From an uncultured bacterium (GTDB lineage Bacteria > Babelota > Babeliae > Babelales > Vermiphilaceae), in the NCBI GenBank assembly GCA_963701085.1, contig OY969561.1:64001-128000 (forward strand): DNA of 64,000 bases, read 5' to 3'. A program made the translations under genes and the position numbers. Every line of letters starts with the position of its first letter. The first letter of the stretch is position 1. This document shows positions 11,010-36,764 of the stretch, piece by piece. Under the pieces are notes generated by a model. That model saw only the letters and a list, made by a program, of their open reading frames with translations. It had not been told where the DNA came from and ran no database searches.

Positions 11010-11156
11010 TTTCAATAACAATTGATTAAAACGTTTTCAGCAACCGCGAATCAGTCGTTATTTAAAAAGATTTTGATAACATAAAAAGTTCTTTGAAATA
11101 CACAAGAAAAAGTTTCGTATCTATCGATTTTTCGGTAGGATCCCAGTTCAATTCAG

Positions 11157-12702
<1,546 letters not shown>

Positions 12703-12794
12703 CGAGGGAGATTCACGAACAATATTTTTATATTGTTCTATATAGGTGTTATTTATTACTGGGTCCTGTCGAAAAATTGATAGATACGGCTTAT

Positions 12795-12871
12795 GGGCCT
12801 ATAGCTCAGCTGGTTAGAGCATTCCGCTGATAACGGAAAGGTCAGTCGTTCGAATCGACTTAGGCCCACCA
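12795..12871 (+). tRNA. tRNA-Ile(GAT)
   Basis: Cloverleaf, anticodon arm TTCCG-CT GAT AA-CGGAA, encoded CCA. Confidence 0.97.
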
Positions 12872-13038
12872 TAAGGTTTTAATTTTAAAAAATTTCCCAA
12901 GCAGTAATGTTTGGTGGTTAAAAAATTTAACTATGCGTGGGCTATAGGCAATATTGCATACAGAGTATTGATAGTCATAGGCACATCGATGATTTTGCTC
13001 TTTATTGACAATATAGCGGTGCCCAACGTGAAAATACC

Positions 13039-13114
13039 GGGGGTGTAGCTCAGTTGGCAGAGCGACCGTTTTGCACGCGGTAGGTCAGCGGTTCGAATCC
13101 GCTCATCTCCACCA
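13039..13114 (+). tRNA. tRNA-Ala(TGC)
   Basis: Anticodon TGC, G3:U70 identity pair, encoded CCA. Confidence 0.97.
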
Positions 13115-13258
13115 AAAACCATTAGTTTTTTTCTTTCTTTAATTTTTCTTGTGTATAAAAGTCGTAAAAAATTGTTAGTAGTAATAACAAAAAATTTGTG
13201 ATCTTTGAAATATATGTATTAATGAGTGCTCAATGTTTGAGTAACCAGCAAAATTTGT

Positions 13259-16326
<3,068 letters not shown>

Positions 16327-16468
16327 TGATTATGAAAAAATTTAGGTAACTCATTCTGCATTCATTAATACATATATTCAAAGATCACGATAAGATAATA
16401 CTTTGATATAAAAAAACTTTTCAAAATTGACTAAATCTGTTAAGATTTAATCAATGAGAATAAAAAAT

Positions 16469-16584
16469 TTCTGGTGTGTATAGCTATGGGGAAACACCCG
16501 TCCCCATTCCGAATACGGTAGTAAAGTCCATAGCGCTGAGAATACTTGGTTGGTAACGGCCTGGGAAGTTAGGTAACGCCAGAA
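16469..16584 (+). rRNA. rrf: 5S rRNA
   Basis: TTCTGGTG...CACCCGTCCCCATTCCGAA...CGCCAGAA terminal helix. Confidence 0.96.
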
Positions 16585-24318: not shown

Positions 24319-27300
24319 TTAATGTTGTCTATTTATATACCAATACCAGATAGCAGAGAAAGTGCTCACCGCACACGCGCTCATAATTGCTGCAAACACT
24401 TCTCCTGGATATGCATTAAATATCACTTTTTGTGCCAATTTTAGCATAACAAAGCTGCCCGTTGCGAGCGGAATGAGTGCAAAATCATAGCGAATGATAA
24501 AGCGGTACATTGCAAGAAACGCCCAGCCAATTATTGATCCCACGATAATCCACAGCGGTAGATCCTCAAGAGATGGTAATTCACAGAGCGCCATGCCGCA
24601 CAGCGCAGCAAATCCTATAAAGAATACGCAATGCTTTTGCCATTGTTGTGTTGCCGTATCAATGAGCATAAACAGTAGAGAAAATGCAATGGTGATTTGT
24701 GCATAGTACGTGAGTGTGTTTATCAGTGTAGCAACTAATGGAATAATGCAACTCAGAGCATCGTAGTTTGGCCACAGTGGCATGTTGGTTGGAATGAGTT
24801 TATATGCAAAGCCCAAAATTCCTGCAAAAAATAGTCCCACGCACATTCCCGTACTTATGGTTGTTGCATTGTTCGGTAAGTGGTGTGATCTTTTTTGTCC
24901 CATTATATAACTCATAACAGCCGCGTACATAATTGATTTGATGACAGCACTTACCGTGAGTGATGTTATGAATTGAATGAGTTGGTTCATTAAGGGCAGA
25001 CTGGTATTAAAACCACCGGCTATGCTTGGCCAAGTATTAATTATTTCAGCAAAAAAGAGTACCGTTATGATACTAAATAATGTGAAAAAGAGTTGTTTTG
25101 AAAAAATAAAACTTATTTTTTGTCTGTATAAAAGAATGATTGCAAAGAGTAAAAAGAACAGCAAAATGAGAAAGAAAATTATGACGATAATATTCAGCAT
25201 GTTTTGTTTATGCAGTTCATTACGTTCCCATTCTTCAGGAACATGAATGGTGCGTACTGCATCAACAACTTTATCACCAGCAATGGTAATGTTGATACGT
25301 GCTTGGCCACTGTTGAGTGGGTATACTGCCGGATTTGAGAAAATAAATAACCAATTTTTTCTATTCGGCAATTGTGTTTGTGTTGCAGAAATTTCCGTCA
25401 GTTCTGCCGGGTTAAGATTGAACTGTTCTTGCAATGTTGCATGCGCAATTGCACGTGCTTCATGTTGAGACAGTTGCGCGCCAGCGGTAGTTTCAGGTAA
25501 TTGGTGGTAGTAGCGCCAAATGCTATTATCGTAGAACATTACTTTGTGCTCTTCTGCACGTTGTATAATATCAGTATCAAATTGTGCGTAACGGATTGTC
25601 CAGTGTGTCGGGTGTAAATAGGTGCCCAAAAGATTATGATACAACTCTTTGTTGCCTTCTCTCCAGATGAATTTATGTTGAATGGCAATTTGCGGAACAA
25701 GTTTGTAGTGCGTAAATATAAGTGGTAACGTTTTCCATGGCTTGTCCGACGAAGCTTTAGCGAAGTCGGAAGTGTGCGGTAGAAAATTTTTCTCTGCTAA
25801 ATATGCATTTGCCGTTGCAATTGCCTCATTTCTATTCATGGTAATAGTGACGCCATCATGAGTAAATGGTGTTGTCCCTATCCATGCAATAAGACCTGCT
25901 ATACCAAGAACGAGCATTAGTTTTTGCGTTGCTGTGCTTAGTGTGTATGATTCAGTTTGTCTGATGACAGGTTCTACTTTTTCTTTTGTTATTGCAGTAG
26001 CTGTCCATGATTCATTGAGAGCTGATTGTGGCAGTTCTGTCCAGCAACCTTTTTTTATGCGTGCATACAGTATACATGCAAGCGGAAGCATGGTAATGAG
26101 TACAATAGTTATTTTGTAAGCGAGTGCATGTGGTGTTTGGGATACAAAAATGGGCAATGAAAACCAAATAATATCATAAACAGTGTGTGCAATAATATTG
26201 GTGAGTAAACCAAACCGTAAATAAATTGCACCCCAGATGAATGATGGTATGAGTAATTCAACAAGACGTGCATATGATGGTTGCATCGGATAATTGGCAT
26301 GCGCAGCACCAAAAATAACCGCTTGTAAGATAAATGCAGCAGTTATCCACCAATTTCTCTTACCAAAATAGTCTCCTATTAAGGCAGCCCCCGCTAGGGG
26401 GATTGCTCTAAAAAGACATTCTTCCATAAAACCAGCATTCAATGATTGAGCAATGGGTGAAAACCAGGGGACATAAGTTGCTAAGATATTGGGATCGAAT
26501 AACATTTCCGACGGTGACCACCATCCCAAATAACGGGTGGAAAATAAATAAAATCCAATCACAAATGCACAGTTAAAACCAACAAGGAGATATGCGCCAA
26601 CAGTTCTGCCTAATACCGCATATGATGTACTGATATTGTTTTGCCACAAAGACCATAGTTGTGGTTGATGGCCAAAAGCACGGCGTGTTAAGCTTTCTGC
26701 AGTCATAATAACTACTGTTAAAAAGGCTGTTTGAGCGAGCAAATTGATAAAAAAACTGAGAAATAGTTGTATAAGAAAACCATTTGATGAGTGAGCGCTA
26801 TTATAATGCATCCATAAAAAAGGTAATCGATTGATAGCTGTTAGTACTGACATGCATGCAAGCAATATTGCCCATTGTAATGGTTGTTTTATAATGTACC
26901 AGCGTCGTCTCATAATCCAAAATAGACCAAGACAGCAGCCGCCAAGAATATAAAGTAATCCCATAATAAGGTTTGCTGCCCAAGAAATGGTATTATTTGC
27001 TGAACGCATTTCAGCATAACGGCGATTGAATGCTTCAGGTACTTTAACAAAATGGGTTAGTTCGGTCATTTTGTTGCCGCTGACAACTATTTTTAAGCGG
27101 TATAAGCCTTCACCAGACTTCGCCAAGGCTTCGTCGGGCAGGCCTATTTTTTTATCTGCACGTTCATAGACAAAGGTGTGATCAATTCTTTCGCTAGGTT
27201 CTGTTTTTTGTGATGCTTCAACTAATGTGTAGTCAGTAAAGGTAACATTCCAATCAGCAGCACCGTTTTTTTCTGCTATCTGTTGCGCATCAGTTGATGA

Positions 27301-27732
27301 TAATTGTGCGCCAGGAACATTCTCTGAAACAGTTTCTACAAAGCCATACGGCTGGCCATCAGGAGTGAATGTAATGGTTGTTTCATTTTTTTCATGCTCT
27401 TTAAAATGGCGTACGCGCCAGGTATATGGCATGTAAAGATTGTGTTCCATCATTGCTACAAACGCATCTTTGCCGCCAGCTTCAAGTTCCACGAATGTTT
27501 TAACGGCATTGTCTGTGTGAAACATTGCGGCATATTCATAACTGTTAGGACCTAGTTGATGTTGTTCCGCTATTTTATCTGCTTTATCTAAAGCTTGTTC
27601 AAGATCCATACTGATTTTGAGATGGATAAGGGGAAATGTTTGTGGGAAAAAGTGAAATGCAAAAAAGTATAACAGTCCTGAAAGGATTGTTGCGCTAATC
27701 CACATAAGTGGAGAACATGAATAATGTTTCAT
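24319..27732 (-). CDS. Large membrane protein with CPBP (Abi/CAAX type II) intramembrane metalloprotease domain
   Basis: EECLFR, FGAAH, AHTVYD motifs; two similar extracytoplasmic domains and many TM helices. Confidence 0.85.
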   Translation of the reverse strand: MKHYSCSPLMWISATILSGLLYFFAFHFFPQTFPLIHLKISMDLEQALDKADKIAEQHQLGPNSYEYAAMFHTDNAVKTFVELEAGGKDAFVAMMEHNLYMPYTWRVRHFKEHEKNETTITFTPDGQPYGFVETVSENVPGAQLSSTDAQQIAEKNGAADWNVTFTDYTLVEASQKTEPSERIDHTFVYERADKKIGLPDEALAKSGEGLYRLKIVVSGNKMTELTHFVKVPEAFNRRYAEMRSANNTISWAANLIMGLLYILGGCCLGLFWIMRRRWYIIKQPLQWAILLACMSVLTAINRLPFLWMHYNSAHSSNGFLIQLFLSFFINLLAQTAFLTVVIMTAESLTRRAFGHQPQLWSLWQNNISTSYAVLGRTVGAYLLVGFNCAFVIGFYLFSTRYLGWWSPSEMLFDPNILATYVPWFSPIAQSLNAGFMEECLFRAIPLAGAALIGDYFGKRNWWITAAFILQAVIFGAAHANYPMQPSYARLVELLIPSFIWGAIYLRFGLLTNIIAHTVYDIIWFSLPIFVSQTPHALAYKITIVLITMLPLACILYARIKKGCWTELPQSALNESWTATAITKEKVEPVIRQTESYTLSTATQKLMLVLGIAGLIAWIGTTPFTHDGVTITMNRNEAIATANAYLAEKNFLPHTSDFAKASSDKPWKTLPLIFTHYKLVPQIAIQHKFIWREGNKELYHNLLGTYLHPTHWTIRYAQFDTDIIQRAEEHKVMFYDNSIWRYYHQLPETTAGAQLSQHEARAIAHATLQEQFNLNPAELTEISATQTQLPNRKNWLFIFSNPAVYPLNSGQARINITIAGDKVVDAVRTIHVPEEWERNELHKQNMLNIIVIIFFLILLFFLLFAIILLYRQKISFIFSKQLFFTLFSIITVLFFAEIINTWPSIAGGFNTSLPLMNQLIQFITSLTVSAVIKSIMYAAVMSYIMGQKRSHHLPNNATTISTGMCVGLFFAGILGFAYKLIPTNMPLWPNYDALSCIIPLVATLINTLTYYAQITIAFSLLFMLIDTATQQWQKHCVFFIGFAALCGMALCELPSLEDLPLWIIVGSIIGWAFLAMYRFIIRYDFALIPLATGSFVMLKLAQKVIFNAYPGEVFAAIMSACAVSTFSAIWYWYINRQH
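25741..25770 (-). repeat. 30-nt palindromic element (family A), in frame in CPBP gene
   Basis: TCCGACTTCGCTAAAGCTTCGTCGGACAAG, translated SDFAKASSDK. Confidence 0.9.
27113..27142 (+). repeat. 30-nt palindromic element (family A), in frame and antisense in CPBP gene
   Basis: CCAGACTTCGCCAAGGCTTCGTCGGGCAGG, translated LPDEALAKSG on the coding strand. Confidence 0.9.
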
Positions 27733-27768
27733 AGGGTTTCCTTGGTACTTGCCTAATCTTTATATCCC

Positions 27769-27840
27769 GCGCTCACCCTGAACTTGTTGAAGGGTTAAGG
27801 CGCGCTCAAAGAAACCCTTCAACAAGTTCAGGGTGAGCGC
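27769..27840. repeat. Intergenic palindromic element (family B), perfect 28-bp arms
   Basis: GCGCTCACCCTGAACTTGTTGAAGGGTT-N16-AACCCTTCAACAAGTTCAGGGTGAGCGC. Confidence 0.92.
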
Positions 27841-27884
27841 ATCAGGAAATTTAGTAAGCAAATTTAATTATTTATGAATTACTG

Positions 27885-28286
27885 TTATTTATCTTCCGCT
27901 GGTTGGCAAATATCAATAAGGTTGCCATAAAGATCTTTTATCACGGCATCAATGCCCCAAAATTCATTGGTAGGCTGTTTGACAAATTCAACACCTTTTC
28001 CGGTAAATTCTGCGGCTGTTTTATGACAATCATCAGTAAGGAGCACAAAAAGAGGAATACTGCCACTTTGTTTACCAATTATTGTATGATCTTCTGGTTC
28101 CTGAGGTAGGAGTAAAGAAAGAGAAACTGTTGAATCCTTGGTTGGCGCTATGGTGAGCCAGTACCAGGTGTTATCAGGGGCTTTATGAGCTTCTGTTGTG
28201 ACAAAACCGAGTTTTTCGGTGTAAAAGGTTAAAGCTTCATCCTGATTACGCACTAAAAGTGAAAAATGACTGATTTTTGAAGCCAT
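27885..28286 (-). CDS. VOC (glyoxalase/bleomycin resistance) family protein
   Basis: VRNQDEALTFYTEKLGF, KGVEF, WG, KDLYGN motifs. Confidence 0.92.
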   Translation of the reverse strand: MASKISHFSLLVRNQDEALTFYTEKLGFVTTEAHKAPDNTWYWLTIAPTKDSTVSLSLLLPQEPEDHTIIGKQSGSIPLFVLLTDDCHKTAAEFTGKGVEFVKQPTNEFWGIDAVIKDLYGNLIDICQPAEDK

Positions 28287-28466
28287 AGATGGGCCCTTTT
28301 GAGAAAAAGTTAATAGAATACTATACTTAATAATGGTACCAGGCTTTTTAACTAAGGCAATTGGTTAGGTACAAGTAATTATGATTAATATTGCTATTGT
28401 TGTGTCTAAAATGTTAAGTTTGTGCTGTATAATACAGTTTGGGTAAAAATGCTCGAATTAATATGA

Positions 28467-29453
28467 ATGGGGGTTCTTATGAAACGTTATATACATATCG
28501 CATTACTTGCTCTTTTTGCTCAGTGTGGATTATCAAATGTTGTTTATAGTATGAATATAGCGCCTGTAACAGTAGGGCCAGATTCAATTGTGAATGCTAT
28601 TAAACAGTATTCTGATTTAACCGAAGCTGATGTGAATCAATATAAACTATTATGGCTTGGTAGTCTTGGTACAGCGGGTGCATTTGTTTTGGGAGCAGCT
28701 TCAACTATTGGAGCCGGTGTGGGAGCGTATCAACAGGCAGGATTAGTTCAAGGTATTACTTTTGAATCTACTCCAAGTTGGATGAAAAATGCTTTGGTTT
28801 TGGCTGGATTAGGTTCTGTCGGTACGGGTTATGTGAGTTATAAATTATTGTATCCACGTATTCGTGCAGGTGTTCTTAATAAGGTTCAAAGATTTATTGA
28901 TGTGTGTGAGGCTTTGTATGGGGACAGTCCTGCCGATATAACTGGTACAGTTTATAGTGTTGTGACGTATAATTTTGAGTATAGAAATTTGAGTATGCTG
29001 CGATCATATCTTCCTAAGCATTGGCCAGCGGGAGATGATGTAGCCGTGTACAATGCTCTTGATAACTTGGCTAAACAGGGACGTCTAGCTCAAGCTTTGT
29101 TGAATCAAATAAGAACAAGTGATGATGAAGTTAATGCCATGAAAGAAGTGGTAAAAACGTATAGTGATAATTTGTCTGCTAATCTGAAATTATATGAACC
29201 TATGATTGATGTTGCATATAGAAAAAAACGTGAAGCGGCAGAGCTTGCTGGGATAGAAGTAGGTACAACTTTAATGAAAGCAAAAACAATTGAAACATAT
29301 GGAACTATGGTAACAAGCACTTTTAACAATGCTTGGAAGGGATTGAATTTTCTTTATGAAAATCAGCAGTATATTATGGGTGCAGTAGGTTCCATAGGTT
29401 TAATTAGTGCATATAGTTATGTGAAGTCTAAATTACTTGGTGGACAACAATAA
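28467..29453 (+). CDS. Hypothetical secreted/membrane protein
   Basis: 328 aa; leader ending VVYS-MN; Gly/Ala-rich hydrophobic segments. Confidence 0.7.
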   Translation: MGVLMKRYIHIALLALFAQCGLSNVVYSMNIAPVTVGPDSIVNAIKQYSDLTEADVNQYKLLWLGSLGTAGAFVLGAASTIGAGVGAYQQAGLVQGITFESTPSWMKNALVLAGLGSVGTGYVSYKLLYPRIRAGVLNKVQRFIDVCEALYGDSPADITGTVYSVVTYNFEYRNLSMLRSYLPKHWPAGDDVAVYNALDNLAKQGRLAQALLNQIRTSDDEVNAMKEVVKTYSDNLSANLKLYEPMIDVAYRKKREAAELAGIEVGTTLMKAKTIETYGTMVTSTFNNAWKGLNFLYENQQYIMGAVGSIGLISAYSYVKSKLLGGQQ

Positions 29454-29463
29454 ATAATAATTG

Positions 29464-30825
29464 TTATTGCCCAAAGAGAGATAGTAGTTCATAGACATTA
29501 TAAAAACGCTTGACGGTGCAGGAAGTTTTTTCGATGACCTGATTTTTTGCAACCAACAGCGTTGTAATGCCAAATTTTTCAGCCTCCTTGATAAGATGGC
29601 CAATGTTATTAATTGGCTTGATTTGTCCGGTGAGGCTGATTTCACCTAAAGCGATTGATTTTTCAGGCAGCGGTTCTTGGAAATAGCTTGAAAGCAATGC
29701 AAACGCGGTGCCAAGATCACTTTCCGATCCAGTAATTTTAAAGCCACCACTCACTTTAAAAAAGATATCCTGCATACTTAATTTTATTTTTACGTATTTT
29801 TCTAAAATTGCTGCAATGAGTACCACTTGCTTGTGATCCAAGCCAGAGACAACGCGTTGTGGCATTGTTAATTTTGATGCATTGGTGAGTGCTTGTAATT
29901 CCAGCAAAATAGGTCGAGATCCTTCCATAATGCTGATAATAGCAGATCCAGGAGCGTGTGATATTTCACTAATTAAGTGTGCGTTAATATTTGGTACTTC
30001 TTGGAGTCCGTGTTGTTCCATACAAAAAAAACCAAGCTCATTGATTGCGCCAAATCTGTTTTTTACTGCTCTGAGCATACGCGTTTGCCAACGGTCTTCT
30101 CCTTGCAGATAAAACACTGCATCAACCATGTGCTCCAATGTTTTTGGTCCTGCAATAATTCCTTCTTTAGTAATATGTCCGGTGATAATCACGGTAATAT
30201 TATGTTCTTTACTTAATCGCATTAATTGGAATGCAGATTCTCGTAATTGTCCAACACTGCCGGGAAGGGTATGTGCATCATTGATGTAACAATTTTGTAT
30301 GGAATCAATGACCAAGAGATCCGGTTTTTGTTCGCGTGCTGTTGCTATAATACTTGTCAGTTCTGCTGCATCAGAAAAAAGTAGGTTGCTATTAACGGTT
30401 TTCAATCTCATTGCGCGTCCTTTAAGTTGCTGCAGTGATTCTTCTGTAGAAAAATAAAAGACACGTTTTGTTTTTGCTATTTCATACGCAACTTGGAGTA
30501 ACAGGGTAGATTTACCAATCCCAGGATCGCCAGTGATAACAATAAGAGATCCGGGAACAAGGCCACCACCAACAACACGGTCCCATTCACCAATACCGGA
30601 TAGAACTCGTGGTAGCTCTTGCGTATCTATTGCATCCAGTGATATAAGTTGTGCTGCTCGTGTGTGAGCATACATCTTGGTAGAGCTACTTGTTGCGGTG
30701 ATTACATTTTCAATTAATGAATCCCACTCTTTGCATTCGGGGCAGCATCCCATCCATCTGATGGTTGTGTAACTACAGTTTGAGCATTTAAAAGATGTTT
30801 TTGTTTTATTCATAGTTTTTAGCAT
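29464..30825 (-). CDS. radA: DNA repair protein RadA/Sms
   Basis: CxxC-CxxC zinc finger, GDPGIGKST Walker A, KNRFG motif, Lon-like C-domain. Confidence 0.97.
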   Translation of the reverse strand: MLKTMNKTKTSFKCSNCSYTTIRWMGCCPECKEWDSLIENVITATSSSTKMYAHTRAAQLISLDAIDTQELPRVLSGIGEWDRVVGGGLVPGSLIVITGDPGIGKSTLLLQVAYEIAKTKRVFYFSTEESLQQLKGRAMRLKTVNSNLLFSDAAELTSIIATAREQKPDLLVIDSIQNCYINDAHTLPGSVGQLRESAFQLMRLSKEHNITVIITGHITKEGIIAGPKTLEHMVDAVFYLQGEDRWQTRMLRAVKNRFGAINELGFFCMEQHGLQEVPNINAHLISEISHAPGSAIISIMEGSRPILLELQALTNASKLTMPQRVVSGLDHKQVVLIAAILEKYVKIKLSMQDIFFKVSGGFKITGSESDLGTAFALLSSYFQEPLPEKSIALGEISLTGQIKPINNIGHLIKEAEKFGITTLLVAKNQVIEKTSCTVKRFYNVYELLSLFGQ

Positions 30826-30935
30826 AAAGGAGCACTATTATTTTTGCAAAATATTGCTTTAACTCCAATACGTACTACATTCTTATTGGTGACTTTCGTT
30901 GAGAAAATAAAAAAAGTGAGATAAAGGAGTGGTAT

Positions 30936-31884
30936 ATGAAAATATATAAAGGTTTGATTGTTTTTTTATTATTATCTGTTCAATTGGGTATTGCGCGATT
31001 AGAGGTGCTTGATAATGAGCCTCGTAATGTAGAATTGCTGAGCACGCAAGAAATGCGATTTTGTTACATTAGTTTTGTTAGAGTTAATGGAACAAAATAT
31101 ATCATAAAACAAAAAAAATCAGATTGCTTTCGTAAAATTGTTGGTGTTGTGCGTGATGCAATCACCGCGCATGTTGTAGAAAGTTTTGGTAGAGCACATG
31201 GCATAGATGGCTTGGCGCATCAGGTTGATGTAATTCCTGCAGGGAAAGAATTTCAGGGAAAACTTCGAACAGACTGGCCAGCAACAATTCATACCATTGC
31301 GCCAGGAAAAATGATTAAAGATCAGGATAGTCGGTATAATAGCATGAATATAAAACAAGGCTGATGTTGGTTTTAGGCGTGATATGCTTGCATGGATGGC
31401 CAAAGATCCAATATTGATAAAAATTGTTGCGTTGGATACATTCCTTTGCAATCATGATCGTCATCGAGGCAACTTGTTTTATCATCCTCAAACAGATTCA
31501 TTTTGTGCCATTGATATGGATTCTGCATTTAAACACAATCTGTGCGCCCTTGCTTGTCAGAATTTTACGGCAATGCTTAATGATAAAAGATTGCGATTAA
31601 GCCTCAAAGAGGTACGAGTGCTTGTTGAATACAAAAAACACCTCCAGTTTTTGGTTGATAATCACCATCCAGAAGACACATTGCGCATGTATAATTATTT
31701 TGTTGATAAGGCAGGGTTTGTTGAGGGGTCAGATTTATACACAGAAAAAATTGCTTTGGAGCTTGAGCAGAATAGGCAAATGATCATTCAGAGCTATCAG
31801 GATGCCCTAAAGCTGGTGAATATAGTGGGTGAATTGATAAAAAAGGCACAAAAAAGGGACATAGCTGACGTGAATTTGCTATAA
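30936..31884 (+). CDS. Atypical kinase paralog 4, frameshifted near 31360
   Basis: ORF 30936-31364 (YIIKQK, VRDA, WPATIH) plus ORF 31384-31884 (DRHRGNL, AIDMD); removing one G at CAAGGCT gives IKQADVGFRRDML. Confidence 0.8.
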
Positions 31885-31913
31885 AAATATAATGGATCTG
31901 GTATACTCATAGT

Positions 31914-32636
31914 ATGAATATACTAAAAAACCAATCCGATTCTTTAAGTAAACACCTTGCTCAAGCGGGTGTTGCGTCTCGTCGCAAAGTAGTAGATATT
32001 ATTAAATCCAAGGTGGTAACCGTTAATGGGGTTGTTATTGAAGACCCTGGTTTTAGAGTTAACCTTAATGATTGCGTGAGAGTTAGCAATAATATAGTTC
32101 GCGCAGAATCCAAGGTATACCTTTTGCTTAATAAGCCAAAGAACTGTATTACAACGGTTTCTGATGATCTTGGTCGTAAAAGCGTGATTGATCTTATTTC
32201 TACCGAGGTAAAACAACGCGTGTATCCTGTTGGCCGTCTTGATCGCAATGCAACCGGGTTATTGATATTGACTAATGATGGGGAACTGGCTCTTAAATTA
32301 TCACATTCTCGATTTGAAGTTGAAAAAGTATATCATCTCCTTTTGGATAAAGCATTTACCCGCAATGATATGAAAAAAATCCTTTCAGGTGTTCAACTTG
32401 AAGATGGTTTTATCAAAGTTGATGCGGCAAATTTCTTCCCCGATAGACCTAAGCAAAATGTAATGGTTGTTCTTCATAGTGGTAAAGACCACATGGTTCC
32501 GCGTCTTTTTGAGCATTTGGGCTATGGCGTTGAAAAAATTGATCGCGCCGGATACTCAGGACTAATCAAAGTTCGTTTAAAAGTAGGCGAATGGCGCCAT
32601 CTTACCAATGCTGAAGTTTCTCGTCTTAAAAACTAA
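31914..32636 (+). CDS. RsuA/RluB-family rRNA pseudouridine synthase
   Basis: S4 domain (AGVASRR), NKPK, PVGRLD catalytic motif. Confidence 0.93.
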   Translation: MNILKNQSDSLSKHLAQAGVASRRKVVDIIKSKVVTVNGVVIEDPGFRVNLNDCVRVSNNIVRAESKVYLLLNKPKNCITTVSDDLGRKSVIDLISTEVKQRVYPVGRLDRNATGLLILTNDGELALKLSHSRFEVEKVYHLLLDKAFTRNDMKKILSGVQLEDGFIKVDAANFFPDRPKQNVMVVLHSGKDHMVPRLFEHLGYGVEKIDRAGYSGLIKVRLKVGEWRHLTNAEVSRLKN

Positions 32637-32690
32637 TATTTTTTTAATTTTTTGCTGATTTCAAGTACACTGCTCATATTCTAATTTATT

Positions 32691-34079
32691 ATGATACGAG
32701 CGGAGTTTTACATGCATGATGGATATTTAAAAGTTGAACAATCTCCAGCACTCAAAGGTGAAGTCAGACTTACTGGAGCAAAGAATGCAGTTTTAGTTAC
32801 CATTGCATCATTGATTTTAACAACGGGTAAATCATTATTGTACAATGTTCCTATTTCAGCTGATGTTTTTGAGATGATAGAGTTACTGCGCCATTTTGGT
32901 GCAGTTATTTTTTTTGATGAAGAAAAGCATCAATTATTTGTGGATACAACATTACTGCATTCATGGAGCGTGAGTAGCGCGATGATGAAAAAAACGCGCA
33001 CGTCAATTTTAGTCATGGGGCCACTTTTGGCGCGTTTTGGTAAAGTACGTATTGGTGGACTTCCTGGTGGTGATGCTATTGGCAAACGTCCTATTGATTA
33101 TCATTTGAAAAATTTTGCAAAGATGGGTGTTGTTATTCATCACGAAGGTGATTATCTGTGCGCTGATGTTGAAAAGTTAGTAGCTGCCCGAATAGTGTTG
33201 GAATATCCGAGTGTGGGGGCAACAGAAAATATCATTATGGCAGCAACACGTGCCCAAGGGGCGACGAAAATTATAAATGCCGCGTGTGAACCCGAAGTTT
33301 TCAATTTGATTGCATGCCTGACAAAAATGGGGGCAAAAATAATTATTGAAGCTCCTGCCACTATTACCATTGAAGGTGTTGATATTTTGAACCCCATTGA
33401 ACACACCATTATGTTTGATCGTCTTGAAGCGGGATCATTGCTGATTGCTGCTGCTGCAACGGGGGGAGAAATTTATATTCCCGATGCATCGGCTGATGTA
33501 TTAGATGTATTTTTGCTCAAGCTTGAAGAAATGGGACATGCAATTACAATTGGTCCAAATAATAAGGGGATTTATCTTAAATCCACTCAGACACCGCATG
33601 CGGTGTCTTTTAAAACTGGACCATATCCAGGGTTTCCGACTGATTTGCAACCTCCCATGATGGCATTGCAATGCTTTGCATCAGGAACGAGTGTTATTGA
33701 AGAGACAGTATTTGAAAATCGTTTTCATCATGCACATGAGCTTATCAAAATGGGTGCATCAATTAAAATTGAACATAATAAAGTAATAGTCACCGGTGTT
33801 GAAAAATTATATGGTGCGCATGTTGTTGCAGCTGATATTCGCGCATCAACGGCGTTGGTTGTTGCTGGGTTGGTTGCGCATGGCACAACAATAGTTTCTG
33901 GTCTTCATCACTGGAAGCGTGGTTATGAAGCGTTAGAAAAAAAACTCCAGCATCTTGGCGCTAAAGTTGCGGTTCATGAAGGTGAAGATATGAGCGCTTT
34001 AATCCTTCAACAAGTTCCCGACTTCGCCAAGGCTTCGACGGGCACGCAGGATGAGCGCGGAAAGCAAACAGATTTATAA
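32691..34079 (+). CDS. murA: UDP-N-acetylglucosamine 1-carboxyvinyltransferase (start possibly 32712)
   Basis: GAKNA, LPGGDAIGKRP, SVGATEN, PGFPTDLQ, ETVFENRF, DIRA, RGYE. Confidence 0.97.
   Translation: MIRAEFYMHDGYLKVEQSPALKGEVRLTGAKNAVLVTIASLILTTGKSLLYNVPISADVFEMIELLRHFGAVIFFDEEKHQLFVDTTLLHSWSVSSAMMKKTRTSILVMGPLLARFGKVRIGGLPGGDAIGKRPIDYHLKNFAKMGVVIHHEGDYLCADVEKLVAARIVLEYPSVGATENIIMAATRAQGATKIINAACEPEVFNLIACLTKMGAKIIIEAPATITIEGVDILNPIEHTIMFDRLEAGSLLIAAAATGGEIYIPDASADVLDVFLLKLEEMGHAITIGPNNKGIYLKSTQTPHAVSFKTGPYPGFPTDLQPPMMALQCFASGTSVIEETVFENRFHHAHELIKMGASIKIEHNKVIVTGVEKLYGAHVVAADIRASTALVVAGLVAHGTTIVSGLHHWKRGYEALEKKLQHLGAKVAVHEGEDMSALILQQVPDFAKASTGTQDERGKQTDL
34002..34060 (+). repeat. Family B half-element with a nested family A 30-mer (34017-34046) in the murA 3' end
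   Basis: ATCCTTCAACAAGTT[CCCGACTTCGCCAAGGCTTCGACGGGCACG]CAGGATGAGCGCGG. Confidence 0.88.
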
Positions 34080-34095
34080 AGCCTAATATATGTTT

Positions 34096-34947
34096 TTAAA
34101 AATTACCCGCTAATTCAGTAATTTCAGTCGTAATTTTTGCTTGACGTATTTTGTTGTATTCTAACTTGGTGGTGTTCAACAAACTATTTGCGTTGCGCGT
34201 TGAATTATCCATGGAGATAAAGCGAGCGGCATGTTCAGAAAGCAGTGATTGGAAAATGAGGTGCTGAAATTGAGCCTCGATATACTGCACCGCGAGCGTG
34301 TTTAAGATCTCGCTTGGCGCTTCATCCCAGATATATCCTTCTGTTGGAGGTATGGTTGCTGCAGATATTGTTGCCGGATTGAATGGAATAAGATGGGTTA
34401 CGGTTGCCTTTTGGGTAAAAAAATTTTTAAAAACATTGCTGATGATAGTGACTGATGTATAGGCAGGTGTTGCCAGCATAACAAGATCAGTCAATTCTTG
34501 AGCGATTGTTAAAAAATTACGGGCAGTGAGCACGGGAAAAGAACAGATTAATCTATCAGGATAGTTGTTGATTAAATAATCAATTGGTTTTTTCCCGATA
34601 GCGCTAAAATGATAATGGGCTGATGGGTTTTGTTTTAAATATTCTTGTAAAAATTTTGAGAGCTGTGTATTAAAACCGCCACATAAACCTTTTTGTGATC
34701 CAATAACAACAATGAGAGGGTTACTGTTTTCACCGGTTGGCATAAGCCGCTCATGTGACCATGATGGAGTTGCTAGCTGTACCTTGGCAAGTAATGTTTT
34801 GAGCGCATTCAGGTATTCGCTGAGTGGCTCTTGTTTTATTTTAAGCCGTGAGTGAGCTGACATAGAAATAATACGCATCACATCAGTGACTTTTTTTATT
34901 GTTTCAATGGTTTGAATGCGATTGCGCATTTGAATGAGTTTGGACAT
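34096..34947 (-). CDS. atpG: ATP synthase F1 gamma subunit
   Basis: IKKVT.VM, KGLCGGFN, SEHAAR...MDNSTRNA, YNKIRQAKITTEITE. Confidence 0.95.
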   Translation of the reverse strand: MSKLIQMRNRIQTIETIKKVTDVMRIISMSAHSRLKIKQEPLSEYLNALKTLLAKVQLATPSWSHERLMPTGENSNPLIVVIGSQKGLCGGFNTQLSKFLQEYLKQNPSAHYHFSAIGKKPIDYLINNYPDRLICSFPVLTARNFLTIAQELTDLVMLATPAYTSVTIISNVFKNFFTQKATVTHLIPFNPATISAATIPPTEGYIWDEAPSEILNTLAVQYIEAQFQHLIFQSLLSEHAARFISMDNSTRNANSLLNTTKLEYNKIRQAKITTEITELAGNF

Positions 34948-35115
34948 GTTACCCCATGGCTGCTTGTGATAAAGCGATTGTATTAAACTTACTGTACCTG
35001 TACTTTAAGCATTTTTCAATGGTAATTATTTTGGCTTTATTGAAACAATGTTGTGTTAATTGATATACTTGCGATGTAGGGTAATAGGGTAGAAAAGTCT
35101 TAATTACGGATAAGT

Positions 35116-35706
35116 ATGATTATTGTTGTGGATGCGTACAACCTTTTACGTTCCGTGCCGCCGTATAAAAAGACCATTACGGACAAAGAGCGGGTGCAAT
35201 TTATTGCGCAGCTGGGTGCGTATGGCCGTCGCAAGGGTCACAAAATGATCATTGTTTTTGATGGTGGTCCTCATGAGTGGCCATTTAAAGAAAACATGAA
35301 AGCAATGACCATTGTCTATTCTGGCATCCATGATAGCGCAGATGATTATATTAAAGAGTATGTGGAAGCTCATCGTGCAAAGGATCTTTTACTTGTATCA
35401 TCTGATGCTGAATTGAATCGCTGGGCAGCGCGGCACAATATTCCCTCCATTGATTCATCAGGCTTTCATCATTTGTTGCATCAAGAGTTGTTGGCAAAGC
35501 AACCGATTGCTGAAAAAATTTCTGAAGTTACAAAATTGCATCGTGATAATGATGCAATAGATATTGACGCTCTCATGACGGAGGCGAGTAAAAGTGTACC
35601 AATAAAGAGCGAAGATTTAGCTCCGGTGAATAAAAGTCGTGATGCAAAAAAGGCTCAGGTTAGTAAAGGTGAGCGTGAATTATTAAAAAAGTTAAACAAA
35701 TTATAG
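35116..35706 (+). CDS. NYN (YacP/Rae1-like) PIN-fold nuclease
   Basis: IVVDAYNLL, IVFDG, SADDYI, VSSD. Confidence 0.88.
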   Translation: MIIVVDAYNLLRSVPPYKKTITDKERVQFIAQLGAYGRRKGHKMIIVFDGGPHEWPFKENMKAMTIVYSGIHDSADDYIKEYVEAHRAKDLLLVSSDAELNRWAARHNIPSIDSSGFHHLLHQELLAKQPIAEKISEVTKLHRDNDAIDIDALMTEASKSVPIKSEDLAPVNKSRDAKKAQVSKGERELLKKLNKL

Positions 35707-35716
35707 AGCTATTCAT

Positions 35717-36193
35717 ATGAAGAACCATAACAAAGAGATTGTTTATTCATTAGATGAGCATGATAAGGTTATTCAAGAATTGAAAAATGCAATGGCAAGG
35801 TGTCAGGTCTTTGCCTTGAGCGGTCCTCTTGGTGCGGGAAAAACAACGACCATTAAAGCATTGCTACGTAGTTGCGGGGTGACTGGTACTATTACTAGTC
35901 CAACATTTACGTATGTTAATGAGTACGAAAACAGTCAAGGTGAGCATTTTTATCATTTTGATTTATATCGGATAGGTAGTGTGCAAGAGTTTCAGGCGCA
36001 GGGATTTGATGAATATTTGTATCAACCTGCCTTTCGTAGTTCGCAGAACGAAGTAGGGCCAAATAGTTGGGCATTTATCGAGTGGCCGGAGGTTATTGAG
36101 CCGCTTTTAACGCACAATGTCTGCTTTGTTTCATTTGATTATCACGATGACCCTGATAAACGGGTAGTTATCATAAAAGAGAGTGAATTTTAA
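35717..36193 (+). CDS. tsaE: tRNA threonylcarbamoyladenosine biosynthesis ATPase TsaE
   Basis: GPLGAGKTT, TSPTF, YHFDLYR, IEW. Confidence 0.96.
   Translation: MKNHNKEIVYSLDEHDKVIQELKNAMARCQVFALSGPLGAGKTTTIKALLRSCGVTGTITSPTFTYVNEYENSQGEHFYHFDLYRIGSVQEFQAQGFDEYLYQPAFRSSQNEVGPNSWAFIEWPEVIEPLLTHNVCFVSFDYHDDPDKRVVIIKESEF
36026..36058 (-). repeat. 33-nt family A variant, in frame in tsaE
   Basis: Reverse strand CCCTACTTCGTTCTGCGAACTACGAAAGGCAGG; adds PAFRSSQNEVG between DEYLYQ and PNSWAFIEW. Confidence 0.75.
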
Positions 36194-36293: not shown

Positions 36294-36378
36294 GGCGAGG
36301 TTCCCGAGCGGCCAAAGGGGGTGGACTGTAAATCCATCGGCTATGCCTTCGCTGGTTCGAATCCAGCCCTCGCCACCA
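36294..36378 (+). tRNA. tRNA-Tyr(GTA)
   Basis: 85 nt with long variable arm, anticodon loop CT GTA AA. Confidence 0.96.
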
Positions 36379-36405
36379 GACTACGCTAAAGCTTCGTCTG
36401 GCAGG
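36376..36405 (+). repeat. Family A 30-mer starting at the tRNA-Tyr CCA
   Basis: CCAGACTACGCTAAAGCTTCGTCTGGCAGG, followed by a second CCA. Confidence 0.9.
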
Positions 36406-36570: not shown

Positions 36571-36646
36571 GCCGGCGTAGCTCAGTTGGTAGAGCAGCTG
36601 ATTTGTAATCAGCAGGTCACTGGTTCGAATCCTGTCGCCGGCTCCA
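36571..36646 (+). tRNA. tRNA-Thr(TGT)
   Basis: GCCGGCG/CGCCGGC acceptor stem, anticodon TGT. Confidence 0.96.
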
Positions 36647-36674
36647 TACTTCGCACAAGGCTCCGTATGGCAGG
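36644..36674 (+). repeat. Family A 31-mer starting at the tRNA-Thr(TGT) CCA
   Basis: CCATACTTCGCACAAGGCTCCGTATGGCAGG, followed by a second CCA. Confidence 0.88.
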
Positions 36675-36734
36675 CCATTTTTTTCAAAGGTTTGACATTA
36701 AGACTTTTTGAAAAGATTGATAGCAGAAGCGAAG

Positions 36735-36764
36735 TATGCCCTTCGAAGCTTTAGCGTAGTAGGG
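36735..36764 (-). repeat. Family A 30-mer, inverted relative to the 36644 copy
   Basis: Reverse strand CCCTACTACGCTAAAGCTTCGAAGGGCATA. Confidence 0.82.

Follow-up and report, generated by a model that had tools for sequence, protein, structure and literature searches.

How does a palindrome of some 30 nucleotides (nt) come to lie, in frame and in either orientation, inside intact protein-coding genes? The question is raised by a 64,000-nt stretch of DNA from an uncultured bacterium of the Vermiphilaceae (contig OY969561.1; hereafter the window), which comprises bases 64001-128000 of the single 1,198,634-bp contig, with 37% G+C, of the focal genome (G000). The window holds about ten copies of a hairpin element of 30, 31 or 33 nt. 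A sequence-only reading of the window had named four copies within genes, two in a gene labelled CPBP, one in murA and one in tsaE, and had proposed a minimal mobile element that adds peptide segments even to housekeeping proteins. This proposal is supported here, because the corresponding sites are empty in relatives and because about 100 further copies, some of them nested, are found in the genome. As to how the element moves, we favour with moderate confidence a non-autonomous hairpin family, similar to the repetitive extragenic palindromic (REP) sequences, that may be spread by small GIY-YIG nucleases acting on hairpins of single-stranded DNA (ssDNA). The four named copies lie where the sequence-only reading had placed them, with the frames and peptides that it gave, and they are listed below with the other features of the window.

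25741-25770, minus strand: hairpin, 30 nt, in the 1137-amino-acid (aa) gene formerly labelled CPBP, on the same strand as the gene and in phase 0; peptide SDFAKASSDK.
27113-27142, plus strand: hairpin, 30 nt, antisense to the 1137-aa gene; peptide LPDEALAKSG.
33992-34060, plus strand: second repeat, which forms the murA C-terminal tail and is split by the hairpin at 34017-34046; it equals one half of the inverted repeats that enclose GIY-YIG genes of the 103-aa type elsewhere.
34017-34046, plus strand: hairpin, 30 nt, in the murA tail; peptide PDFAKASTGT.
36026-36058, minus strand: 33-nt variant in tsaE, with inner stem GTTC/GAAC; peptide PAFRSSQNEVG.
36376-36405, plus strand: hairpin directly 3' of tRNA-Tyr, its first three bases being the CCA of the tRNA.
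36644-36674, plus strand: hairpin A of a module, 31 nt, directly 3' of tRNA-Thr(tgt) and beginning with its CCA.
36729-36738, plus strand: A', the 10-nt reverse complement of the 5' half of hairpin A, 82 nt past the CCA.
36735-36764, minus strand: hairpin B of the module, an inverted copy.
40191-40220, plus strand: diverged intergenic copy with inner stem GTT/AAC.
48919-48981, plus strand: hairpin after tRNA-Val, whose loop holds a second, nested copy.

Empty sites and nested copies

The 11-residue insert in TsaE is missing from all 24 orthologues found in relatives' genomes, and a lake-metagenome contig from a relative also bridges the empty site; a search of sequencing runs returned contigs of relatives alone, with shares of at most 0.25. 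Among 21 metagenome homologues aligned out of 120 listed, a sample in which best matches and longer proteins were favoured, the same site is filled in 11 and empty in 10, and five of the 11 filled homologues carry more material nested within the insert. The TsaE loop is itself a target, in which differing small repeats are nested across metagenome lineages (P0006, P0010, P0013, P0019, P0027). In the AlphaFold model of TsaE, whose mean pLDDT is 85.4, residues 105-112 lie within the insert and are the sole segment with pLDDT below 50, predicted as a coil between a helix and a strand. The 33-nt variant had been located correctly, and its description has to be amended in that it lies on the minus strand and has a longer inner stem.

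The 1137-aa gene (24319-27732, minus strand) is conserved in 16 of 25 relatives searched and matches no Pfam family at E<=0.001, so that the label CPBP is not borne out. Each of its two sites is empty in 15 of the 16 relatives. At 25741-25770, the exception is G007, in which the site is filled with a copy nested in another copy; at the position of 27113-27142, it is G002, with an independent insert of 78 nt that is oriented the other way. Other species have been struck again at both of these codon positions, in the orthologues L178 (G002) and L176 (G007), and the insert of L178 has 48 extra bases. In murA, the element is found in none of 24 other genes. The MurA protein of G000 is 57% identical to that of a Candidatus Babeliaceae record, which recurs among the genomes of the same order, so that the organism probably belongs to the Babeliales (Dependentiae). 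The location of the murA copy had been given correctly, but the copy belongs to a C-terminal tail past the Pfam domain (residues 16-419 of 462) and is nested in the second repeat.

Five further genes were compared with those of five congeners. Four of them show a clean insert present in G000 alone, 10 residues long except for one of 19, and in one of these cases a congener carries a copy of its own at a distance of three to four codons; the fifth gene (518 aa) is variable in this region and yielded no clean empty site. Overall, eight of the nine coding sites tested are filled in G000 alone, or in G000 and one relative, and are empty in congeners. These alignments show recent insertion of the whole unit, in either orientation, at at least eight coding sites.

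The targets include intergenic DNA, other repeats, copies of the element itself and coding sequence. Copies are repeatedly nested in other copies, just past the inner stem. The second repeat, of ~25 nt, has 85 intact copies in the genome, and four more are split, always at the same point, three of them by a hairpin of 30 nt and the fourth by one of 31 nt; each half of this repeat is found ~155 times with at most one mismatch, compared with 4-7 times in a shuffled genome.

A different reading of the open frames would be that the peptides are ancestral sequence or that the repeats are artefacts of assembly. Only the openness of the frames speaks for it. The empty sites in the relatives' alignments refute it, identical DNA is found in unrelated genes, in intergenic DNA and on both strands, and cultured isolates with finished genomes also carry the element. 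We give this reading practically no chance.

Structure, placement and host range of the hairpin

Within the window, a 24-nt degenerate pattern of the element matches six sites at three or fewer mismatches and none in 100 shuffles. Across the genome, a 17-nt core with up to two mismatches is found at 60 sites, and an nhmmer profile built from the copies gives 145 matches at E<=10 and 99 at E<=0.01, the latter being used as the genome-wide set of copies. A structural descriptor alone recovers 59 sites in the genome and 0, 0 and 0 in three order-3 Markov randomisations. The copies align free of gaps in a layout of 5 nt, a core of 16-19 nt and 9 nt, the 31-nt and 33-nt forms differing by a longer centre.

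The fold consists of a 6-bp outer stem, a 3x3 TTC/TTC internal loop, an inner stem of 3-4 bp and a CAGG-like tail. Among 66 distinct 30-mers, both the outer and the inner stem covary: pair 1-26 is C-G in 30 and T-A in 25 copies, pair 4-23 T-A in 38 and G-C in 13, pair 5-22 C-G in 28, A-T in 14 and A-A in 16, pair 6-21 C-G in 55 and T-A in six, pair 11-16 C-G in 59 and T-A in three, and pair 12-15 C-G in 44 and T-A in 21. Each of these six pairs exceeds the maximum of 500 column shuffles, although subfamilies copied from palindromic masters could yield the same counts. Positions 7-9 and 18-20 (TTC or TAC) are unpaired throughout, and the tail at positions 27-30 reads C (65 copies), A (57), N and G (46). 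G-T pairs are rare, at 0-2 per pair, which is consistent with selection acting on the palindrome in its DNA form rather than on an RNA. The same plan is preserved by the inner-stem variants GCTC/GAGC, GTTC/GAAC and GTTGC/GCAAC, among which is the tsaE copy. Predicted DNA folds of intact copies equal the model structure exactly, at -4 to -6 kcal/mol, and the strand bearing GAA folds better (z -2.0 and -3.1); copies with mismatched stems, such as those at 27113 and 34017, fold no better than shuffles. A scan of the window against Rfam at gathering thresholds returned rRNA and tRNA matches alone.

Placement was assessed against 1129 genes from a simple call based on open reading frames (ORFs), which cover 87% of the genome. 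Of the 99 copies, 50 are intergenic (36 of 30 nt, 13 of 31 nt and one of 29 nt), 46 lie within called ORFs (40 of 30 nt and six of 31 nt) and three, all of 30 nt, lie at gene edges. Since 50 of the 99 fall in the non-coding 13% of the genome, the element is strongly over-represented outside genes. The sequence-only reading had held that all coding copies have lengths divisible by three, which is true of the four named copies and does not extend to the whole genome, where six of the 46 copies within ORFs are 31 nt long. ORFs of at least 150 aa hold 41 copies, of which 36 have a length of 30 nt; a single one of the six combinations of orientation and phase, the coding strand read in phase 0, accounts for 23 of the 41. 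The peptide in this favoured frame is S/P-x-F/Y-A-K/E-A-S/T-x-D/G-K/R, and the common form of the element, read directly, is free of stops in all frames. Genes retain only harmless copies: these are 30 or 33 nt long, are free of stops, mostly keep to one frame and lie in loops or tails.

The exact 16-nt core is present in 23 of 41 relatives. When the core is allowed slight degeneracy, it is found in 136 of the 201 sampled genomes of the phylum, with 0-54 copies per genome, compared with one match over all 201 for the reversed pattern used as control; one congener is without any copy of this core. A scan of a species-representative genome collection with a pattern of 20 fixed bases gave at least 122 loci across many phyla. 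The loci listed belong to Patescibacteria, Saccharibacteria, Alpha-, Gamma- and Deltaproteobacteria, Verrucomicrobia, Planctomycetes, Acidobacteria, Bacteroidetes, Cyanobacteria, Elusimicrobia, Armatimonadetes, Omnitrophota and others; none from Firmicutes or Actinobacteria was seen among the 80 record titles listed. An R-C-A-R-G tail follows nearly all of the matches listed, and five distant genomes have 14-94 copies each, with 0-1 for the control. BLAST of a 35-nt copy against phages and plasmids gave only partial matches of high E value.

tRNA ends, GIY-YIG genes and the means of spread

A regular expression finds a family hairpin directly after 16 of the 35 tRNA genes of the focal genome, and reading of the flanks adds variants and copies that hold nested repeats, for a total of about 23 of 35. 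In all post-tRNA hairpins, the first three bases are the CCA of the tRNA. Their stem is CCA-K-A-C / G-T-M-T-G-G, followed by GGCC-A and often by a run of T. After seven of the 35 tRNAs, the hairpin is part of a ~115-nt module, in which hairpin A is followed by a spacer, by an inverted half-copy (the reverse complement of the first half of the hairpin, ~76-89 nt past the CCA) and, directly after it, by inverted hairpin B; the half-copy probe has no match upstream of any of the 35 tRNAs. The window has such a module at 36644-36764, without a nuclease gene and with a T-rich spacer between hairpin A and the half-copy. Both tRNAs of the complete rRNA operon of the window (11156-16584; 16S, tRNA-Ile, tRNA-Ala, 23S, 5S) are without a hairpin trailer.

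These observations bear on the possibility that the hairpin is mainly a functional signal, such as a tRNA 3' trailer, a terminator, a processing hairpin or a protein-binding site, and that the coding copies are accidental. The frequency of hairpins at CCA ends and the T-runs after them fit such a signal, as does the orthologous tRNA-Tyr trailer, whose stems differ among congeners yet remain paired. One relative has an ordinary terminator at the same position after tRNA-Thr, and in other phyla a whole tRNA lies within 150 nt at 16 of the 122 loci listed, with the element mostly on its 3' side. However, a simple terminator scan does not call the post-tRNA hairpins, and the T-run is 7-9 nt away from the stem. 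In other genera of the family, tRNA-Tyr abuts tRNA-Gly with no hairpin between them, and the congener that is devoid of the core, the in-gene copies in both orientations and the rarity of G-T pairs, which points to DNA rather than RNA, likewise do not favour this explanation, which we consider quite unlikely. Post-tRNA copies presumably play a role in the tRNA trailer, and a terminator role for them is a guess.

The mobile-family explanation that we favour calls for an enzyme. As the sequence-only reading had noted, no mobilising enzyme is encoded in the window; elsewhere in the genome, five ORFs of 84-127 codons encode a GIY-YIG domain that stands alone, and these are plausible partners of the hairpin. 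The three that were scanned against Pfam are all single-domain PF01541 proteins, and the PDB neighbours of the GIY-YIG proteins of G000 are UPF0213 and SLX1 structures. One of the five is of an 80-aa type, to which SLX1 nuclease domains are the closest of the solved structures; it follows tRNA-Glu and a hairpin and is flanked on either side by a 30/31-nt copy.

Among the 201 phylum genomes, hairpin copy number and the number of GIY-YIG matches per genome are correlated (Spearman rho 0.62), and the element is found in 122 of 150 genomes with at least two GIY-YIG matches and in 14 of 51 with one or none (odds ratio 11.5). The 80-aa type is present in 126 of the 201 genomes, 108 of which have the element, compared with 28 of the 75 others; seen from the other side, it is present in 108 of 136 core-bearing genomes, in 18 of 65 without the core and in all 14 copy-rich genomes (>=20 copies). 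These figures come from related genomes, so that the p-values overstate the case. At 30 loci from 30 genomes, which are best matches and hence mostly the orthologous tRNA-Lys/tRNA-Glu locus, the 80-aa gene has a family hairpin within 400 nt upstream in 24, a tRNA within 500 nt upstream in 21 and a hairpin downstream in one. The order tRNA, hairpin, gene is also found in records of Bacteroidota (Niastella soli) and Armatimonadota, and the module layout precedes the 80-aa gene in many genomes.

By comparison, a classical REP moved by a Y1 transposase of the RAYT (REP-associated tyrosine transposase) or IS200 type is very improbable. Size, palindromy, mostly extragenic placement and tail-to-tail pairs do resemble REPs and REPINs as presented in Di Nocera et al. 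2013 (PMC3733652), and Y1 genes are present in 73 of the 201 phylum genomes. Nevertheless, G000 has no Y1_Tnp match, the element is without a GTAG head, and its presence is unassociated with Y1, which is found in 47 of the 136 core-bearing genomes and in 26 of the 65 others (odds ratio 0.79); of the 14 genomes with at least 20 copies, 10 are without Y1. G000 has no match to a reverse transcriptase either. The relatives G010, G137, G207 and G154 have 10-14 Y1 (IS200/IS605-type) matches each, and most congeners have none.

On the explanation that we favour, the hairpins would be recognised as ssDNA by small single-domain GIY-YIG nucleases (UPF0213-like and SLX1-like) whose genes adjoin a tRNA and a hairpin, and nicking followed by repair or copying would spread them; the candidate nucleases would be analogous to the Ssn nucleases with their SRM hairpins.

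Several observations weigh against this explanation. Four of the five GIY-YIG genes of G000 (98-127 codons) are bracketed by a different repeat, as inverted copies of the second repeat (~37-45 bp) enclose them in a layout like that of an insertion sequence (IS). Family hairpins are found on both sides of the 80-aa gene at only one of the 30 loci, and its syntenic tRNA-Lys/tRNA-Glu locus looks resident rather than mobile. Ten genomes with at least five copies are without a gene of the 80-aa type (E<=1e-8), and 28 genomes with at least two GIY-YIG matches are without a core match. The link to the nucleases is one of correlation and adjacency among related, non-independent genomes. Single in-gene copies fold weakly (z -0.3 to +1), and there is no clear bias to one replication strand (19 plus and 33 minus on one replichore, 19 and 27 on the other). 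Junction microhomology averages 1.14 nt, compared with 0.57 at random sites and 0.91 in flank-swapped controls (maximum 1.20).

The last of these points belongs with the possibility that no enzyme is needed, in that hairpin-induced template switching or microhomology-mediated copying during replication or repair would suffice. Insert boundaries are concordant at every mapped site; no consistent or evident target duplication is found there, and junction ambiguity is 1-2 nt at most. A search of the flanks for a target consensus gave a weak preference for C at +1, partly due to repeated host contexts. An enzyme-free process would fit this absence of target duplication, the 2-nt ambiguity at four mapped junctions (GG, CC, TC), the excess of junction homology over random sites and the copies nested in loops of other hairpins. 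It would also fit the insert near residue 140 of L233 (G000:C1:1141017-1143077), which is flanked by a duplication of ~8 codons (VTLTDE / VTLTNE), the sole such case. However, junction homology is no higher than in the flank-swapped controls, and both the single core sequence across phyla and the co-occurrence with GIY-YIG genes are left unexplained, for which reasons we regard enzyme-free spread as unlikely.

Going beyond spread by GIY-YIG nucleases as such, we tentatively put forward, as a possibility somewhat short of even, that the hairpin, the ~115-nt tRNA-end module and the 80-100-aa GIY-YIG genes may be one widespread and undescribed mobile system, apart from RAYT/REP and Ssn/NTS. Such a system would park at tRNA 3' ends and scatter hairpins that add 10-residue loops to essential proteins and supply tRNA trailers.

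Relation to described repeat families

The closest known kinds are the intragenic palindromes of the REP and Rickettsia palindromic element (RPE) type and the Ssn/SRM pairs, and the hairpin family fails the sequence definitions of all of them. Searches of the literature by core DNA, by translated peptide words and by topic found no description of it.

In Chenal et al. (Nat Commun 2025, PMC11893778), Ssn, a 94-aa single-domain GIY-YIG protein, binds NTS/SRM hairpins only as ssDNA and cuts ssDNA just upstream of its hairpin, and an IS-like order of repeat, gene and repeat is noted. In the same paper, NTS copies are rarely intragenic (2% in N. meningitidis), and the genome table gives 0 SRM and no ssnA homologue for a cultured member of the focal group (PMC11893778). 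Both systems have a multicopy hairpin repeat of 20-50 nt that is tied to a gene for a GIY-YIG-only nuclease of ~80-100 aa, is conserved in sequence and structure, and is given its orientation by an unpaired flank. In both, the repeat adjoins the small single-domain GIY-YIG gene and co-occurs with it across genomes (here upstream at 24 of 30 loci and on both sides at one). The differences are that the published SRM motif matches none of the 99 copies and nothing in the focal genome, that the element here is common inside genes, and that it is anchored at tRNA CCA ends, of which the available sections of PMC11893778 describe nothing. Ssn nucleases belong to the cd10448 clade, and the nucleases here, compared by PF01541 and by their PDB neighbours, resemble UPF0213 and SLX1 structures. 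On all points testable here, the hairpin family appears to resemble Ssn/SRM, yet it falls outside its definition.

For REPs, Di Nocera et al. 2013 (PMC3733652) describe GTAG and CGTC types as well as intragenic REPs, including RPE-4/6, which equal CGTC REPs; the CGTC type is without a dedicated transposase, and the Bradyrhizobium GTAG-14 repeats have unusually large loops of GCGG/CCGC type. The core string is not found in the accessible part of the supplements of PMC3733652. Like REPs, the hairpins are small imperfect palindromes of 20-40 bp that are multicopy, mostly extragenic, sometimes in frame and often paired. They differ in having no GTAG head, the tail being C-A-N-G (reverse complement C-N-T-G-Y, then C), in having neither a CGTC tag nor an A/T pair that opens the stem, in the conserved 3x3 internal loop and inner stem, and, from GTAG REPs, in having no association with a RAYT (Y1) transposase. 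At six Bradyrhizobium-type loci, the element lies within the loop of another palindromic repeat, which is REP-like.

The resemblance to RPEs is in the mode of insertion: in both cases, a bacterium of intracellular type with a small genome has the repeat in housekeeping genes that stay intact and in frame, here with empty sites in relatives. RPEs, attributed to Ogata and colleagues in 2000, are reportedly palindromic selfish repeats that lie in frame in intact housekeeping genes, RPE-1 being of ~100-150 bp. The element here differs in its 30-33 nt, in its presence in many phyla rather than one genus, and in its ties to tRNA ends and GIY-YIG genes. The small dispersed repeats (SDRs) of cyanobacteria, said to have been reported by Elhai and colleagues in 2008, are reportedly 21-27-nt repeats with inverted flanks and nested insertions, whose mobilising agent is unknown; they differ in sequence and host range. 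Terminal inverted repeats with a target-site duplication, which define miniature inverted-repeat transposable elements, are not what is found here, the junctions being ambiguous by 2 nt or less.

If the nuclease explanation is true, it would provide a concrete pair of enzyme and target for tiny repeats, a class for which no account of the spread has been available since the discovery of REPs and RPEs, and one 30-nt sequence would be common to Dependentiae-like bacteria, Bacteroidota, Verrucomicrobiota and Alphaproteobacteria. Such identity across phyla may reflect transfer or, alternatively, constraint by a partner protein. The element would also account for many odd low-complexity loops and tails in the predicted proteins of small genomes, and such inserted loops and tails hamper annotation and gene calling in practice. 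If the nucleases cut ssDNA in a sequence-specific manner as Ssn does, each hairpin variant would be a candidate for a new specificity. Two further variants were observed in the focal genome: the second repeat has a related form with a different inner hairpin, and a 4386-codon ORF (G000:C1:416965-430122) has a hairpin variant with a GTC/ATG loop near its start.

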